A stretch of 64,000 nt of DNA from an uncultured Actinomycetota bacterium (GTDB taxonomy: Bacteria > Actinomycetota > Actinomycetes > Mycobacteriales > Micromonosporaceae): positions 484,713-548,712 of the forward strand of contig CAWFFM010000001.1 in assembly GCA_963815125.1 (NCBI GenBank), in the 5' to 3' direction. Below are positions 13,399-18,454 of the stretch, piece by piece. Under the pieces are notes generated by a model. The model was given only the letters and a program-made list of their open reading frames with translations, did not search any database and was not told where the DNA came from. Positions within the stretch are counted from its first letter, which is position 1. Each line of letters begins with the position of its first letter. Made by a program: the position numbers and the translations under genes.

Positions 13399-14373
13399 TC
13401 AGAGCACGTCGTGCCCGGGGTGCGGTTCGGCCGGGATGCTACCCAGCCGGCCGGCCTGGAAGTCCTCGAATGCCTGGAGCAGTTCGCGTCGGGTGTTCAT
13501 CACGAACGGCCCGTACGCGGCGACCGGCTCGCGGATCGGTCGCCCGCCGAGGATCAGTACCTCCAGTTCGGGGCTGCGGGACTCCTGGTTGCGTTCCGCG
13601 GCGATACGCAGTGTGTCGCCGGATCCGAAGGTGGTGAGCTGCCCGGTGTGCACCGGCCGGCCCTCGCCGCCGACAGCGCCACGCCCGGCGAGTACGTAGA
13701 CCAGTGCGTTGAAGTCGGCCGGCCAGGGCAGGCGTAGTTCGGCGCCGGCCGACAGGGTCGCGTGTGCCAGGGCGATCGGGGTGTGGGTCACGCCCGGTCC
13801 GGCATGCCCGGCGATCTCGCCGGCGATCACCCGGATGAGGGCACCACCGTCGGGCGAACTGAGCAGTGCGACCTCACCTCCCCGGATGTCCTGGTAGCGC
13901 GGCGCGGTCATCTTCATCGTGGCGGGAAGATTGACCCACAGCTGGAACCCGTGGAACAGCCCGCCGGACATCACGAGGTCCTCGGGCGGTGTCTCGATGT
14001 GCAGGATCCCGCCGCCGGCGGTCATCCACTGGGTGTCCCCGTTGGTGATCAGACCGCCGCCGCCGTTGGAGTCGCGGTGCTGGAACGTGCCGTCGATCAT
14101 GTACGTGACGGTCTCGAAGCCACGGTGCGGGTGCCAGGCGGTTCCCTTGGGTTCGCCGGGCGCGTAGTCGACCTCACCCATCTGGTCCATGTGGATGAAC
14201 GGATCGAGGTCCCGCAGGTCCACTCCGGCGAACGCACGCCGGACCGGGAAGCCTTCACCCTCGTAGCCCGACGGTGCGGTCGTCACGGATCTGACCGGGC
14301 GATCGGTGCTGGTCGGGGCGGGTTCGGGGACGCGAGGCAGAACCAGAGGGTTCTCGACGCTGACCGCTGGCAT
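13399..14373 (-). CDS. pirin family (bicupin) protein
   Basis: HPHRGFETVTYMIDGTFQHRDSNGGGG is the canonical pirin metal-binding motif. The ATG at 14373 is preceded by GAGGAG. Confidence 0.9.
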   Translation of the reverse strand: MPAVSVENPLVLPRVPEPAPTSTDRPVRSVTTAPSGYEGEGFPVRRAFAGVDLRDLDPFIHMDQMGEVDYAPGEPKGTAWHPHRGFETVTYMIDGTFQHRDSNGGGGLITNGDTQWMTAGGGILHIETPPEDLVMSGGLFHGFQLWVNLPATMKMTAPRYQDIRGGEVALLSSPDGGALIRVIAGEIAGHAGPGVTHTPIALAHATLSAGAELRLPWPADFNALVYVLAGRGAVGGEGRPVHTGQLTTFGSGDTLRIAAERNQESRSPELEVLILGGRPIREPVAAYGPFVMNTRRELLQAFEDFQAGRLGSIPAEPHPGHDVL

Positions 14374-14421
14374 GGCGTACTCCTCAGCTGGCAACCGGAG
14401 GCCGGTACTGGCCTGCCGGTC

Positions 14422-14435
14422 ACAACTATAGTTGT
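14422..14435. promoter_or_regulatory. perfect 14-bp palindrome ACAACTATAGTTGT, candidate operator upstream of the pirin gene
   Basis: The palindrome was read directly from the sequence. Its AT-rich centre stands out in GC-rich DNA. It lies about 50 nt upstream of the pirin start codon, in the pirin/MauE-operon intergenic space. Confidence 0.35.
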
Positions 14436-14546
14436 CTCAGCAATATTCCGCCAGTCAAACAGTCCGTGTCCGGGCAGCAGAGAGCCCGGATGCGGCTGTC
14501 CACCAGGAACAACCGCACCCGGGCCGTGGGTCTGCCACGCCGCGTC

Positions 14547-15437
14547 TCAGGCCGGAGCAAGCACCGCCGGACCGGCGCCGATCGAACCCGAATCGCTCTG
14601 TTCGTCGACGAAGGTCACCTTCACCGCATCCGGCTCGTAGCGCAGCCGGGGTACCGCGAACACGGCAGTGCTGGCGCTGGTGCCGGTATCGGTCTCCCGA
14701 CGGGCCTGATAACAGACGATCCGCCAGTCACCCGAATCCCAGCTGTCCAGTACGTCGCTGCTCAACAGTGCGCCCACCTGCCGGTAGGCGATACTACGGT
14801 GCAGCTGTTGCAGGGTCGAGGCCAGCGGCAGGTCGTAGGCCATCCCGGACAACGGGTGCGGCCGCCACTTCGCCCGCAACCGGCGCATCGGCAGCAGCCA
14901 GCTCCGGTCCGCCTCCGGCGACAACAGCACCACCGCCACCACCTCAGCCACCAGCACCGCCACCCCGACGACCGGGTGGCGGGCCAGTGCCGCCGGCCAG
15001 ACCGTGCCGGTGGTCAGCGCGAGCGCCGAGGACACCAGCATCAGCCCGGCGCGGCAGAACGTACGGACGCCGACCGGCGCCTGCCGGGCGCTCACACAGC
15101 CACAGGACGAGTCGGGTGCGAACAGTCGTACATAGACCAGGTAGCCGAGAAATCCGACGGAGAGCACCCCGGCGGACCCGGCAGCGACCCGGGGCAGTAC
15201 GGCCGTTCCCGGCAGGACCGTTGCCAACCCGCCGGCCAGCAGGGCCGTCGCGACCAGCACCTCGACCACGCCGAGCGTGATGTAGACGGCCGGTGCCCGG
15301 TCCTTGCCGACCAGCCCGCCCAGCGCGCCCTTCGCGGCGGTTTCGCGGGCGAGCCGGCTGGTCAGCTTGAGGCGACCCGACCAGGCCAGCACTGCGGCGA
15401 GCAGCACCGGCTGGAGCGGTGCGAGCCATCCAGTCAT
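14547..15437 (-). CDS. MauE/DoxX-family redox-associated membrane protein with an extra C-terminal domain of about 130 aa
   Basis: The N-terminal half has multiple TM helices, and a CGC motif (SSCGCVS) sits at a membrane boundary as in MauE-type proteins. The ATG at 15437 is preceded by AAGGAGG, which overlaps the stop codon of the upstream gene. Confidence 0.7.
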   Translation of the reverse strand: MTGWLAPLQPVLLAAVLAWSGRLKLTSRLARETAAKGALGGLVGKDRAPAVYITLGVVEVLVATALLAGGLATVLPGTAVLPRVAAGSAGVLSVGFLGYLVYVRLFAPDSSCGCVSARQAPVGVRTFCRAGLMLVSSALALTTGTVWPAALARHPVVGVAVLVAEVVAVVLLSPEADRSWLLPMRRLRAKWRPHPLSGMAYDLPLASTLQQLHRSIAYRQVGALLSSDVLDSWDSGDWRIVCYQARRETDTGTSASTAVFAVPRLRYEPDAVKVTFVDEQSDSGSIGAGPAVLAPA

Positions 15438-15446
15438 GACGCCTCC

Positions 15447-16046
15447 TTACACCTTTCCGGCGTAGACCGTCGCCAGGTCGACCTCGTTGGTGTCCGGCCG
15501 CCAGGCGCCGATCACGTGGACGTGCTTGCCGATCCGCAGCTTCGACAGGTCGCCGGTGGCCGGTGCGTTGCTGTACAGCGCCGCGGTACGGCCCGCCACC
15601 ACATGACCGATGATCTTGCTGCCGTTGTGGTTGAAGTGCAGCCAGCCGTTGCCGATGGCGGTGATCTCCACCGACATGCTGACGATGTTCACCCACAGCG
15701 AGTCGGCAGCGAGTGTGCCATCCGGCATCCGTACGCCGCGGGCGTACAGGCCGTCACCGACGGCGACCTGGTCGAAGGTGGTGGGGTGCAGCTTCCAGAT
15801 GCTGGTGCCGTTGGTGACCTGGATGCGGTGCAGCACCTTGTCGGAACCGGTCACCAGGAGCATGGAGTCCTTGATCCCGGTGATCCGACCCTCGGCGAAG
15901 TTGGGGTCCTTGGCGCCGGGGTCCAGCGAGATGGTCTTGGCGAACGCGGCCTCCGGGGCGAGCGAGCCGAGTGCGGTCGCGCCGGCCACCCCCGCGGTGC
16001 CGAGTACGGCGCTGGTGAGAAACCGTCTACGGTCCAGTGCGGTCAT
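15447..16046 (-). CDS. Tat-signal secreted protein with two internally repeated beta-rich modules
   Basis: The ATG at 16046 is preceded by GAGGAGGA. MTALDRRRFLTSAVLGTAGVAGATALGSLAPEAAFA is a twin-arginine signal peptide. Two similar halves each end in a motif of the type G..lAa..lwV / vdlAtVYaG. Confidence 0.7.
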   Translation of the reverse strand: MTALDRRRFLTSAVLGTAGVAGATALGSLAPEAAFAKTISLDPGAKDPNFAEGRITGIKDSMLLVTGSDKVLHRIQVTNGTSIWKLHPTTFDQVAVGDGLYARGVRMPDGTLAADSLWVNIVSMSVEITAIGNGWLHFNHNGSKIIGHVVAGRTAALYSNAPATGDLSKLRIGKHVHVIGAWRPDTNEVDLATVYAGKV

Positions 16047-16056
16047 GTCGTCCTCC

Positions 16057-16482
16057 TCAGCTCGTGATCGCGGCGGGCAGTAGGCCACTGGACAGGCTGG
16101 CGATGGCGCTGAACGCCGCCGGGGTCAGGTCGATCAGCCGGTCGGTACCGCAGGTGGAGCCGCAGCAGTGCTTCTCGCCGCAGAACATCTGGGTGTTGGG
16201 TCCGCAGTCGGCGACGCTGGCGGTCACCGTGGAACCGTTGCACTGGTTGGTGACGGTGAAGACATGGCCGCAGCCGCGCAGCAGCAGGTCGTGACCGCAG
16301 TTGTAGGGCTTGGTGATGCTGTAGCAGGCGTCCGAGGCGTGCGGCCAGGCGCACTGGTGGGAGCCGGAGTTGCAGTTGCCGCAGGCGCCACCGCCTGCGG
16401 AACTGCACGGGCCCCAGGAACTGCCGCAGCAGAACCAGGACATTTCGCCGTACGCGGGGACGTTGGGTTCGACGTCGCTCAT
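16057..16482 (-). CDS. cysteine-rich (15 Cys in 141 aa) RlpA-like double-psi beta-barrel (DPBB) protein without a signal peptide
   Basis: MSWFCCG, GHVFTVTNQCNGSTVTASVADCGPN and DRLIDLTPAAFSAIASL follow the RlpA/DPBB pattern (ASWYG, V.VTN..NG.SV.V.i.DrGP, iDLS.aAf..l). Cysteines are inserted throughout, including the motifs ACGNC and HCCGSTC. Third-codon positions are strongly G/C-rich. The gene stops 10 nt before the next gene starts. Confidence 0.7.
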   Translation of the reverse strand: MSDVEPNVPAYGEMSWFCCGSSWGPCSSAGGGACGNCNSGSHQCAWPHASDACYSITKPYNCGHDLLLRGCGHVFTVTNQCNGSTVTASVADCGPNTQMFCGEKHCCGSTCGTDRLIDLTPAAFSAIASLSSGLLPAAITS

Positions 16483-17065
16483 GACGAGCCTTTCCGTGCC
16501 GGGCGGACCGTACCTCCGTCACCCGGGTGCACGAACCTACCGTCGGGCGCGATCCGACGGGGGCAGTGGCCGGCGGCTCGGGCTGGGGGAACGGCCGCAG
16601 GGATGACCGCCGGACGGTGTCCGTAGTGGACAGGCCGACGGAGGGGACTACCGCCGTGCCCCGGGGGAGGGAGCGGGCGGACTCAGGTCGGTTCGGGGCG
16701 CGCCGCCGGAGGGGAGCGGACGCGGGCCGGTCCGGCTGCTACGAGGGGGAGCGGGGGATCTGTCGCATGTGACCTCCGGTCTGTGGGTCATTGCGCGAGG
16801 TAATTCTGGGGCGAATGGGAAAATGATGTCAATGGCGATCTCATACGTCAATAGGCGGGTACGTGTAGATTTTCGCCTTCTGGTACTGGACTGTCATGAA
16901 TGGCCATCGGCTGAGAGATTCTCACCCGGCACGCCGTGCCGTTGCCCGGCCGACGCCGGAGATGCTCGGCGGTCGACCTCCCCGTTGGTCGCGTTCCGGC
17001 CCGGACCTGCCCGAAACTGGGGAATGATGGCCAGGTCGGCACCACTGCGGGCATGGGGGGGCACG

Positions 17066-18454
17066 ATGGCGCTGCGGCCACGACACGAACACGCGCGTCC
17101 CGACCTGGAGATCAATCCGATGTACTCGCGTGGCGTCGAGACCGGATCGGTGCCCCGCGACGAACTGCCCGCAGGCGAGATGCTGCCGTCCACCGCGGCT
17201 CAACTGATCCGCGACGAACTGATGCTCGACGGCACCGCCCGGCTCAACCTCGCCACGTTCGTCACCACCTGGATGGAGCCCGAGGCACAGCAGCTGATGG
17301 ATGAATGCCTGGCCAAGAACATGGTGGACAAGGACGAATATCCGCAGACCGCGGAGCTGGAACTGCGCTGCGTCAACATGTTGGCGCGGCTCTGGCGCAG
17401 CCCGGATCCGGCCCAGGCCACCGGCTGCTCCACCACCGGATCCAGCGAGGCTTCGATGCTCGGTGGGCTGGCGCTCAAACGCCGGTGGCAGCAACGCCGC
17501 CGGGCCGCCGGACTGTCCACCGATCGGCCGAACCTGGTGATGGGGATCAACGTCCAGGTCTGCTGGGAGAAGTTCGCCAACTACTTCGAGGTCGAACCCC
17601 GCTATGTACCGATGAGCGGGAACCGCTTCCATCTCACCGCGGCGGAAGCGGTGACCCGGTGCGACGAGAACACCATCGGTGTCGTCGCCATTCTCGGCTC
17701 CACCTTCGACGGGTGCTACGAGCCGGTCGGCGAGATCGCAACCGCGCTGGACGCCCTGCAGGAGCGTACGGGCTGGGACATCCCGATCCATGTGGACGGC
17801 GCGTCCGGTGCGATGATCGCGCCGTTCCTCGATCCGGAACTGGCGTGGGATTTCCGTCTGCCGCGGGTCGCCTCGATCAACACCTCGGGGCACAAGTACG
17901 GGCTGGTGTACCCGGGCGTGGGCTGGATCGTGTGGCGTGATCGCGCCGCGCTGCCCGAGGAACTGGTGTTCAAGGTGAACTACCTGGGCGGTGAGATGCC
18001 CACCTTCGCGCTGAACTTCTCCCGGCCCGGTGCGCAGATCGTCGCCCAGTACTACAACTTCCTGCGCCTGGGTTGGGACGGCTTCCGTAATGTCCAGCAG
18101 ACCTGCCGGGACGTGGCGATGTTCCTGTCCGGCCAGGTCGCCGGGATGGACCAGTTCGAGCTGCTCACCGACGGTTCGGAGCTGCCGGTGTTCGCGTTCC
18201 GGATGGCGGACACGGTGAGCAGCTACACCGTGTTCGACGTATCGCGTGAACTACGGGAACGGGGCTGGCAGGTACCGGCCTATTCCTTCCCCGCCGACCG
18301 GGAGGACCTCGCGGCCCTGCGGGTGGTGGTACGCAACAGTTTCAGCCACGATCTCGCCGTGCTGTTCTTCGCCGATCTGAAACGTACCGTGGCCGTGCTG
18401 GAACGTGAGGGCGGGCGGTCCGGCAGCGGCGACATGCAGGCCTTCCACCACTGA
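17066..18454 (+). CDS. gadB: glutamate decarboxylase (PLP-dependent, GadA/GadB family)
   Basis: The motifs are LNLATFVTTWMEPEAQQLM, DKDEYPQTAELELRCVNMLARLW, and SINTSGHKYGLVYPGVGWIVWRD (PLP lysine motif SGHK). The internal ATG at 17066 gives about 462 aa, the typical size. The first 99 codons of the ORF look non-coding. Confidence 0.9.
   Translation: MALRPRHEHARPDLEINPMYSRGVETGSVPRDELPAGEMLPSTAAQLIRDELMLDGTARLNLATFVTTWMEPEAQQLMDECLAKNMVDKDEYPQTAELELRCVNMLARLWRSPDPAQATGCSTTGSSEASMLGGLALKRRWQQRRRAAGLSTDRPNLVMGINVQVCWEKFANYFEVEPRYVPMSGNRFHLTAAEAVTRCDENTIGVVAILGSTFDGCYEPVGEIATALDALQERTGWDIPIHVDGASGAMIAPFLDPELAWDFRLPRVASINTSGHKYGLVYPGVGWIVWRDRAALPEELVFKVNYLGGEMPTFALNFSRPGAQIVAQYYNFLRLGWDGFRNVQQTCRDVAMFLSGQVAGMDQFELLTDGSELPVFAFRMADTVSSYTVFDVSRELRERGWQVPAYSFPADREDLAALRVVVRNSFSHDLAVLFFADLKRTVAVLEREGGRSGSGDMQAFHH

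Follow-up and report, generated by a model that had tools for sequence, protein, structure and literature searches.

RESULTS

Three Closely Spaced Genes Form a Conserved Cassette

We have analyzed a cassette of three genes, here called g1, g2 and g3, lying on the minus strand of a stretch of actinomycete DNA of 64,000 nucleotides (the window). The G+C content of the window is 63-72%, and among public sequences it is closest to Actinocatenispora-like Micromonosporaceae, with 98% identity to one uncultured actinomycete metagenome-assembled genome. The first gene encodes a small protein exceptionally rich in cysteine that resembles double-psi beta-barrel (DPBB) proteins, the second a protein with a signal for export by twin-arginine translocation (Tat) and the third a membrane protein of the MauE type. 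The features of the locus are collected in Table 1.

The first-pass annotation of this DNA had described three minus-strand genes separated by 10 and 9 nucleotides (nt), with Shine-Dalgarno sequences at the ends of the preceding genes, and this arrangement can be read directly from the sequence. The g1 gene ends with TGA (16057-16059), followed by GGAGGACGAC and the ATG of g2 at 16046; similarly, g2 ends with TAA, followed by GGAGGCGTC and the ATG of g3 at 15437. Both Shine-Dalgarno sites are GGAGG, and each abuts or overlaps the stop codon of the gene before it. The three genes probably constitute a single, translationally coupled operon. The list of open reading frames (ORFs) takes as start the earliest start codon past a stop. 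By this rule the frame of g1 begins at ATG 16482, while that of g2 begins at GTG 16088 and overlaps g1. We prefer ATG 16046 as the start of g2, because it agrees with the Shine-Dalgarno site and with the homologues, which are 198-203 amino acids (aa) long.

The association of the three families holds far beyond the window. The g1 family comprises 191 proteins at E ≤ 1e-3, nearly all of 133-156 aa, and those with a named source all come from actinomycetes. A genome scan found relatives of g1 in 502 species genomes, and gene order was counted in the 80 best genome loci drawn from these. In all 80, which represent many actinomycete genera, g1 is followed by g2 on the same strand, and g3 follows g2 in each of the 78 loci whose contig reaches that far, with its MauE and C-terminal parts both present. 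No other flanking family is common to more than 13 of the 80 loci. The g1-g2-g3 cassette is likewise found in Streptomyces, Kribbella and Fodinicola. Soil metagenomes were scanned with a narrow g1 alignment, which recovered mostly cassettes with separate (split) g1 and g2 genes and not the fusions described below; here a MauE gene lies downstream of g1 in 26 of the 29 loci that have at least 1.7 kb of downstream sequence. The co-occurrence of the three families, on which the interpretation of the window depends, is thus borne out by the neighborhoods (g2 in 80/80 and g3 in 78/78 genome loci), and g1, g2 and g3 very probably form a functional unit.

Table 1. Positions of the cassette, its parts and the conserved upstream block within the window
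Feature	Position	Strand	Basis
g1-g2-g3 cassette	14547..16482	minus	ORFs and spacers; order and strand kept in related loci
g1 ORF, 141 aa	16057-16482	minus	ORF list
g2 ORF, 199 aa	15447-16046	minus	Translation
g3 ORF, 296 aa	14547-15437	minus	ORF list
g1-g2 spacer GGAGGACGAC, 10 nt; Shine-Dalgarno site overlaps the g1 stop	16047..16056	minus	Sequence
g2-g3 spacer GGAGGCGTC, 9 nt; holds a Shine-Dalgarno site	15438..15446	minus	Sequence
g2 twin-arginine signal peptide, residues 1-36, MTALDRRRFLTS...EAAFA/K (slash, cleavage-type site)	15939..16046	minus	Motif read from sequence
g3 residues 1-175, MauE core TM1-TM4 and fifth transmembrane helix	14913..15437	minus	Pfam, alignment, AlphaFold model
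CGC (Cys112-Gly113-Cys114) of g3, putative redox site, TM3-TM4 loop	15096..15104	minus	Sequence, conservation
g3 residues 176-296, juxtamembrane basic helix and C-terminal domain	14550..14912	minus	Conservation, model
Upstream block: promoter-like site, Shine-Dalgarno site and 9-codon upstream ORF	16739..16878	minus	Kept in 5 Actinocatenispora-like genomes

g1 Is a Cysteine-Rich Protein without a Signal Peptide

The g1 protein contains 15 cysteine residues in 141 aa, at positions 18, 19, 26, 34, 37, 44, 53, 62, 71, 81, 93, 101, 106, 107 and 111. Its recognizable motifs are SWFCCG, GGACG, DCGP and IDLTPAAF. All 15 cysteines are invariant across 24 diverse homologues, and the same is true of W16, F17, W46, D92 (in DCGP) and D118 (in IDLTP). 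Hydropathy analysis reveals no hydrophobic segment or signal in g1, and a signal peptide is present in none of the 24 homologues. A Sec signal or lipoprotein anchor of its own is likewise absent from g1 and from these homologues. At five related loci the WFCCG motif lies just 9-13 codons past the in-frame stop upstream of it, which leaves no space for a signal. The original description of g1 as a protein with 15 cysteines and no signal is thus in agreement with both the residue count and the hydropathy, and it extends to the homologues in which the cysteines are conserved.

It had also been noted that g1 follows the pattern of an RlpA-like DPBB domain. By sequence the similarity is weak; the Pfam family DPBB_1 (PF03330) matches g1 with E = 0.0026 and 18.4 bits, under the cut-off of 28.8. 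One relative of g1 (P0273) clears this cut-off with 32.3 bits, and many relatives have a precomputed match to PF03330. When a profile of the 24 homologues was compared with the PDB, weak matches were obtained to loosenin (9ce9), the Streptomyces papain inhibitor (5ntb) and PA4485 (4avr). These matches span GGACG, DCGP and IDLTPAAF, and D92 and D118 align with PA4485 and loosenin. The two aspartates fall in the motifs that bear the functional aspartates of RlpA (DRGP) and of EXLX1 (D71 and D82), and in the expansins the cysteine of GGACG belongs to a conserved disulfide. The pattern is backed by the fold modeled for a relative that is about 49% identical to g1, described below. g1 would therefore appear to consist of one DPBB domain resembling those of loosenin, expansin-D1 or RlpA, an assignment that is real but weak by sequence. 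A counterpart of the second, CBM63-type domain of expansin is missing from this single-domain protein, and the partner g2 is predicted to consist of OB-like barrels.

In the wider superfamily the number of cysteines ranges from 8 to 26. There is a core of five, C26, C34, C37, C71 and C81; positions 34, 37, 71 and 81 are cysteine in 97-99% of sequences and position 26 in 87%. Among the remainder, positions 18 and 19 are gained or lost jointly, and position 44 is frequently Met, Ala, Ile or Leu. The co-occurrence of cysteines gives weak hints of pairing between 18 and 19, 53 and 93, and 106 and 111. Because a variable shell of cysteines surrounds a small core, structural disulfides are suggested in g1.

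g2 Carries a Twin-Arginine Signal

The N-terminus of g2 is MTALDRRRFLTS, containing the twin-arginine motif DRRRFLTS, and it leads to a cleavage-type site AFA/K. The protein has no cysteine. There are 850 homologues of g2, many of which carry the NCBI label 'cell wall protein'. The twin-arginine motif is found in all 120 of the homologues listed, of which 116 have no cysteine, so that the signal recognized initially in the window is kept throughout the listed family. The Tat-signal models TIGR01409 and UCR, as well as DUF5666, give sub-threshold matches to g2. The threshold is not reached on g2 by any model of Pfam or NCBIfam, and there is thus none to justify the name 'cell wall protein'.

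The mature protein is predicted to form two tandem beta-barrels of the OB or DUF5666 type. The first-pass annotation had reported an internal duplication in g2. This did not hold at the level of sequence, where a comparison of the two halves gave a BLASTP E of 9.4 and an hhalign probability below 1%; the duplication is visible solely as the two tandem barrels in the model of a fusion protein. A role for g2 as a metal chaperone, raised by the CusF-like fold of these barrels, was rejected, since conserved His, Met and Cys residues are all lacking from the protein.

Natural Fusions Point to Co-export of g1 and g2

A profile search covering 1.84 billion representative proteins returned stand-alone, signal-less g1-like proteins, Tat fusions and one fusion with a Sec-like signal. 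About 45 clusters are natural fusions of 320-400 aa, in which a twin-arginine signal is followed by a g2-like region, and this by a linker and the g1-like domain. P0247, which is one of these, originates from a Ktedonobacteraceae genome (Chloroflexota). At the locus L085 the two genes are separate and the signal has been swapped, a Tat signal being found on the g1-like protein and none on the adjacent g2-like protein. A MauE gene was called beside three of four fused loci (L081, L082 and L099) and beside the swapped locus L085; none was called beside the fusion at L084.

The structure of the fusion protein P0247 was modeled with AlphaFold2, using an alignment of 101 rows. The model has a mean pLDDT of 86.6 and a pTM of 0.86, with low confidence in the signal and the linker. 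The high pTM despite the low-confidence linker argues for a defined packing of the g2-like and g1-like parts. In the model two OB-like barrels pack on a DPBB domain of the loosenin, RlpA or expansin-D1 type. The pLDDT of the latter, which is the relative about 49% identical to g1 referred to above, is mostly higher than 90. A Foldseek search of the PDB with this domain gave the loosenin PcaLOOL12 (9ce9; E = 8e-5, TM-score 0.73) and PA4485 (4avr; TM-score 0.82), and further the papain inhibitor (5ntb; TM-score 0.65), kiwellin (4pmk and 6fpg) and EXLX1 (3d30). The g2-like part matched tandem OB folds, including S1, CSD cold-shock, EF-P and CusF-like structures.

The two proteins thus exist in three states, as a split pair with g2 bearing the signal, as a fusion behind a single signal, and as a split pair in which g1 bears it, and these argue for one exported unit. 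In the window only one member of the pair has a signal, with a twin-arginine signal on g2 and none on g1, and this holds in the homologues too. It had been suggested from the window alone that g1 is co-exported with the Tat protein, and this idea gains support from the approximately 45 fusion clusters, the signal swap at L085 and the pTM of the fusion model. Homologues of g1 with signals of their own had been named as grounds for abandoning it. Such homologues do exist, yet their signals are of the Tat type, present with or instead of that of g2, and for this reason they argue for Tat export of the DPBB domain. From the sequences and the model together, we consider it likely that g1 and g2 are co-exported.

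g3 Is a MauE-Type Membrane Protein with an Additional Domain

The Pfam family MauE (PF07291) matches residues 4-141 of g3 with E = 2e-8 and 34.9 bits, over the cut-off of 27. An AlphaFold2 model of the protein (pLDDT 86.4) has helices at residues 2-26, 48-73, 76-106, 124-142 and 155-172. The CGC sequence sits between helices 76-106 and 124-142, and is therefore a CXC motif in the loop that joins the third transmembrane (TM) helix to the fourth. In an alignment of the g3 family (alignment A4) C112 is invariant and C114 nearly so, and there is no other conserved cysteine. K24 and E59 are also invariant, matching the lysine of TM1 and the glutamate of TM2 that are a feature of MauE.

Following the fifth TM helix there is a basic helix and then a domain modeled as an alpha+beta structure, with two helices and a four-stranded sheet, at residues ~205-278. 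The conserved residues of this C-terminal region are W180, L181, R185, Q211, S215, D228, W233, R239 and the sequence 258-AVFAVP-263. No Pfam family matches residues ~176-280, and no significant match to the g3 model emerged from a Foldseek search, which showed only weak resemblances to cystatin and NTF2-like folds. The early assignment of g3 as a MauE-type protein with a CGC motif and an unrecognized C-terminal domain consequently stands in both its parts. Every complete MauE protein of a split cassette has the C-terminal domain, while those beside fused or swapped forms are proteins of 180-200 aa without it. The domain thus seems to be tied to g1 being a separate chain.

A 2026 preprint provides information on the activity of this family. 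MauE proteins from two phyla restored motility and alkaline phosphatase in Escherichia coli dsbB mutants, and both cysteines of the CXC motif were needed to replace DsbB; the conserved lysine of TM1 and glutamate of TM2 lie near a docked quinone, and the CXC of the MauE proteins tested was predicted to be periplasmic (bioRxiv 10.64898/2026.03.05.709764). Taken with the co-occurrence of MauE and g1, the replacement of DsbB by way of the CXC motif supports the proposal of the first-pass annotation that the MauE-like partner handles the thiols of g1. By analogy, g3 would on balance be expected to oxidize g1.

A Possible Pathway for Export and Oxidation of g1

We can combine these observations into a scheme, which we favor with moderate confidence on the strength of the sequence comparisons and the models, whereby the cassette would be a self-contained module for the production and maturation of a DPBB protein that is exported and locked by disulfides. 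The signal-less g1 would fold as a DPBB domain and bind the precursor of g2 in the cytoplasm. The twin-arginine signal of g2 would then carry the complex through the Tat translocase, with g1 hitchhiking as MelC2 does on MelC1; this step is suggested by the fusions and the signal swap. The signal of g2 would also be cleaved. As a DsbB-like oxidase, g3 would employ its CGC motif and a quinone (menaquinone) to oxidize up to 14 of the 15 cysteines of g1, consistent with the activity demonstrated for its family. Docking of g1 or the g1-g2 complex would probably fall to the two additions in g3, its fifth TM helix and its C-terminal domain, which would so replace the thioredoxin partner of the DsbA or MauD type. 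Such a docking role is suggested because these additions are found only where g1 is a separate polypeptide. There is no thioredoxin-fold gene in the cassette or its flanks. g1 would be the sole cysteine-rich product, because g2 has no cysteine. Lastly, the mature DPBB domain and two OB-like barrels might act on a glycan, whether that of the cell's own wall or external chitin or cellulose, in a loosening or lytic manner. This is the least certain step.

Points against the Scheme and Alternative Interpretations

A number of points weigh against this scheme. Fifteen is an odd number, and therefore at least one cysteine of g1 must lie outside intramolecular disulfides; C44 is perhaps the unpaired residue. 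In g3 and its orthologues the residues that follow CGC are V, L or M and then S or G, and not the Phe-Gly of the family. Three metagenome loci (L146, L148 and L165) encode g1 and a Tat-g2 with no MauE within a flank of ~5 kb. In the distant pairs L086 and L090 there is no signal on either the g1-like or the g2-like protein, and by analogy these may be intracellular versions like the pair MelD1/MelD2. The structural model is that of the homologous fusion P0247, and not of g1 and g2 of the window. Finally, action of the g1-g2 complex on a glycan, for which the resemblance of fold is the sole basis, is possible but doubtful.

The remaining difficulty concerns the side of the membrane on which g3 acts. 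In the g3 family the mean number of lysine plus arginine residues is 6.3 in the TM1-TM2 loop, 3.4 in the CGC loop and 5.1 in the helix that follows TM5, making 14.8 in all, compared with 0.8 on the other face of the membrane. A cytoplasmic location of both the CGC loop and the C-terminal domain is therefore what the positive-inside rule predicts. This conflicts with oxidation after export, and with the periplasmic CXC predicted in the preprint. A matching bias is present in the MauE proteins beside the fusions, and in the canonical MauE of Paracoccus. The mau cluster of Paracoccus kondratievae (L093:4923-6694) encodes a MauA with a Tat-type signal and 12 cysteines, together with a MauE containing CGC. 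In canonical MauD the N-terminal TM helix is preceded by no basic residue; under the positive-inside rule both MauE and MauD would have cytoplasmic active sites, contrary to current assumptions. Moreover, proteins pass through Tat in the folded state, and a model disulfide protein depended almost completely on disulfide formation in the cytoplasm for its export by this route (PMC9995818).

It might be, therefore, that oxidation and assembly precede export. With its CGC motif and C-terminal domain both facing the cytoplasm, g3 would capture g1 there, form its disulfides on the inner side of the membrane and pass the folded g1-g2 complex to the Tat translocase. This would accord with the confinement of the C-terminal domain to loci with a separate, signal-less g1, and with the Tat-type signals of both known MauE-linked cysteine-rich substrates (MauA and g1/g2). 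Set against this, the DsbA-dependent periplasmic phenotypes of E. coli dsbB mutants are restored by two MauE proteins, whose CXC is predicted to be periplasmic, and reducing conditions prevail in the cytoplasm of actinomycetes. Counting charges is, furthermore, only a heuristic, and the invariant loop arginines R125 and R129 may have a functional role. We regard oxidation before export as unlikely. In its general form, the proposal would be that MauE proteins with five TM helices (the g3 type), and possibly, by their like charge pattern, canonical MauE as well, have a CXC on the cytoplasmic face and carry out quinone-linked oxidation of Tat cargo before export. This too we judge to be improbable. 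The C-terminal domain of g3 would then recruit the signal-less g1 onto its Tat-signal escort.

The function of the complex, once outside the cell, might not be wall loosening or lysis. An exported g1-g2 complex could instead be a secreted binder or inhibitor, acting either on a protease or as a kiwellin-like anti-fungal or anti-effector protein. The papain inhibitor 5ntb was found both by the profile comparison with the PDB and by Foldseek (TM-score 0.65), the latter also matching kiwellin (4pmk and 6fpg); a dense set of disulfides would suit a stable extracellular binder, and the hosts are soil dwellers. Yet the best structural matches are to loosenin and the RlpA-like PA4485, D92 and D118 are invariant and lie in the motifs of the functional aspartates of RlpA and EXLX1, and there is no evidence concerning a target. 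A binder or inhibitor is thus quite unlikely.

The absence of a signal from g1, and the presence of 15 invariant cysteines that include CC and CxxC-like spacings, would also be expected of a cytoplasmic metal-thiolate or redox protein, binding zinc, copper or an Fe-S cluster. Its linkage to g2 and g3 would then have to arise from some other shared process. The distant signal-less pairs of g1-like and g2-like proteins could be cited in favor, MelD1/MelD2 being the intracellular counterpart of MelC1/MelC2. However, many relatives place the g1-like domain behind a Tat signal, either by fusion or directly, and the g2 protein of the clade to which g1 belongs always has a twin-arginine signal. The number of cysteines is highly variable in the superfamily, and the fold is that of extracytoplasmic families. 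We consider such a cytoplasmic role to be very unlikely.

Least probable is that g1 is a heavily modified precursor matured by MauE, either like a peptide that is made on the ribosome and modified after translation (RiPP) or like the quinone-cofactor subunit that is the light chain of methylamine dehydrogenase; while decRiPPter flagged Streptomyces clusters having mauE and a precursor with at least 8 cysteines as RiPP candidates (PMC7794033), MauE was first linked to the 12-cysteine MauA, and W16 and W46 are invariant in g1, the protein is a full, confidently folded DPBB domain without a leader and core layout, and neither the window nor the conserved flanks contain a gene for a protease, a transporter, a radical-SAM enzyme, MauG, MauD or the large subunit of a dehydrogenase.

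Other Features of the Locus and Related Loci

The neighbors of the cassette are genes for a pirin, an HU-like protein, a divergent pyridoxal phosphate (PLP)-dependent decarboxylase, a class-II amidotransferase (GATase) and CtaD, and nothing thiol-related is found among those immediately adjacent. An Rfam search of positions 14000-17500 gave no match, and no intrinsic terminator was found for the cassette.

A conserved block lies ~260-400 nt upstream of g1, between it and the divergent decarboxylase gene. It contains a promoter-like site, TTGACG-17 nt-CATCAT, at 16851-16823 (a promoter scan gave 3 sites compared with 0.2 expected) and an upstream ORF running from ATG 16768 to TAG 16739. The latter encodes the proline-rich peptide MRQIPRSPS, with length and stop identical in 5 of 5 genomes. 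The block and its upstream ORF are confined to Actinocatenispora-like genomes. We assign it tentatively to the g1-g2-g3 operon; it could belong to the divergent decarboxylase gene, and it has been kept out of the mechanism discussed above. More widely, a near-consensus -35-type hexamer TTGAC(G/T) precedes g1 in many genera (loci L020, L038, L043, L049, L073 and others). It sits 110-175 nt upstream of the WFCCG codons, and is followed by an AT-rich stretch that, judged by eye, closes with a TAnnnT-like -10 element. The combination of this hexamer with an AT-rich stretch is unusual for high-GC genomes, and suggests strong transcription of a housekeeping type.

The related loci include several variants of the cassette. 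Fodinicola feengrottensis (L097:752-5420) has two tandem g1-g2-g3 cassettes followed by an orphan third g1. In one lineage (L088:3273-3914, also L089 and L149) a gene for an extra protein of 213 aa, anchored to the membrane by its N-terminus, lies between Tat-g2 and MauE. At L146:5079-6136 there is a two-component system upstream; L148 shares its coordinates and scores with L146. The g1 protein of L146 is nearly identical to P0243, the cluster of which includes a protein from Chloroflexota. The pairs at L086:3159-4146 and L090:112-1018 (Bacillus sp. UNCCL81) leave too little space for any signal, and the g1-like protein of the Bacillus has only 8 cysteines.

At L092:553-4595 a g1-like gene with 8 cysteines lies near a phage terminase (GpA) gene, and the next gene starts with a twin-arginine motif, SRRDF. 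This raised the idea of a mobile element or lysis cassette. A search of the phage collection with g1 gave no match, and the only match in PLSDB was to a Nonomuraea gerenzanensis record of 11.85 Mb, which is the size of a chromosome, and the idea was rejected. In the same species there is an unannotated g1-like coding stretch at NZ_LT559118.1:230246-230542, having 57% identity over residues 43-141.

DISCUSSION

Literature searches aimed at the g1-g2-g3 cassette yielded no published description of it, in keeping with the initial remark that no described system of such composition was known. Relatives of g1 are nevertheless present in at least 502 species genomes and many soil metagenomes.

If the scheme that we favor, with g1 exported on g2 and oxidized by g3, is correct, the cassette would add to the few cases of Tat hitchhiking, and would be one with unusually clear support, in that the split, fused and signal-swapped states are all natural. 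It would bear on how a folding-sensitive pathway copes with proteins that need disulfides. Only recently has MauE been put forward as a third kind of enzyme that forms disulfides in bacteria. The cassette would give it a co-encoded substrate outside methylamine metabolism, with which its specificity, its need for a partner and its orientation become testable. Were the CXC motif to prove cytoplasmic, g3 would be a natural, membrane-bound counterpart of the engineered systems for cytoplasmic disulfide formation, and it would be explained how Tat, a checker of folding, can export proteins that fold by means of many disulfides. In the product of g1 and g2, filamentous bacteria may have a new relative of the expansins and loosenins, made of two parts, and this would interest both those who study cell walls and those who process biomass.

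Several known systems can be compared with the cassette. The RiPP clusters of the decRiPPter type differ from it in that g1 is a globular domain, and no modifying enzyme, protease or transporter is encoded nearby. In the maturation of MauA by MauE and MauD, as at our locus, a small cysteine-rich protein with a Tat-type signal on it or its partner is encoded beside a CGC-bearing MauE. MauE is cited as being required for the methylamine dehydrogenase light chain (bioRxiv 10.64898/2026.03.05.709764; PMC7794033). MauA, however, has its own signal, g1 has another fold and g3 possesses an extra C-terminal domain. The MauD, MauG, large subunit and amicyanin of the mau cluster are absent from the window and from the conserved flanks of the cassette.

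The VKOR-thioredoxin fusions have five TM helices, comprising a four-helix, quinone-linked thiol oxidase to which a soluble domain is appended. With these and with the DsbB-DsbA system g3 shares a four-helix core, a fifth TM helix and a soluble domain, and MauE can replace DsbB. In contrast to them, the soluble domain of g3 is not thioredoxin-like and has no conserved cysteine, and the protein appears to be dedicated to one co-encoded substrate.

Disulfides are normally formed outside the cell, and we know of no other Tat-hitchhiking cargo that is both rich in disulfides and free of cofactor. Tat heterodimers with a single signal are known (PMC10924467). In PaoABC, the small and large subunits of hydrogenase and DmsAB, one twin-arginine subunit exports signal-less partners after assembly in the cytoplasm (PMC4273604). 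The pairing of one twin-arginine subunit with a signal-less partner is common to these and to g1-g2. They are redox enzymes with cofactors, whereas g1-g2 has no evident cofactor, and a cargo that would need disulfides.

In Streptomyces the signal-less MelC2 is exported on MelC1, which has a Tat signal (PMC2758597). This is likewise a two-gene actinomycete pair in which a Tat-signal helper carries a bound, signal-less partner, and the signal-less intracellular paralogues MelD1/MelD2 may be compared with the pairs at L086 and L090. The cargo is a copper enzyme in the one case and a cysteine-rich DPBB protein in the other, and the escort is a caddie protein as against an OB or DUF5666-type protein; the g1-g2 unit has in addition a dedicated MauE oxidase and natural fusions.

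By its fold the g1 family belongs with the loosenin PcaLOOL12, EXLX1 and PA4485, with TM-scores of 0.73-0.82 to the small targets and the shared motifs GGACG, D-x-G-P and (I/F)DL(S/T)P.AF. Those proteins have a Sec signal or a lipoprotein anchor, and far fewer cysteines. g1 differs from them in its 15 cysteines, its lack of a signal, its obligatory OB-fold partner in place of CBM63 and its linkage to an oxidase.

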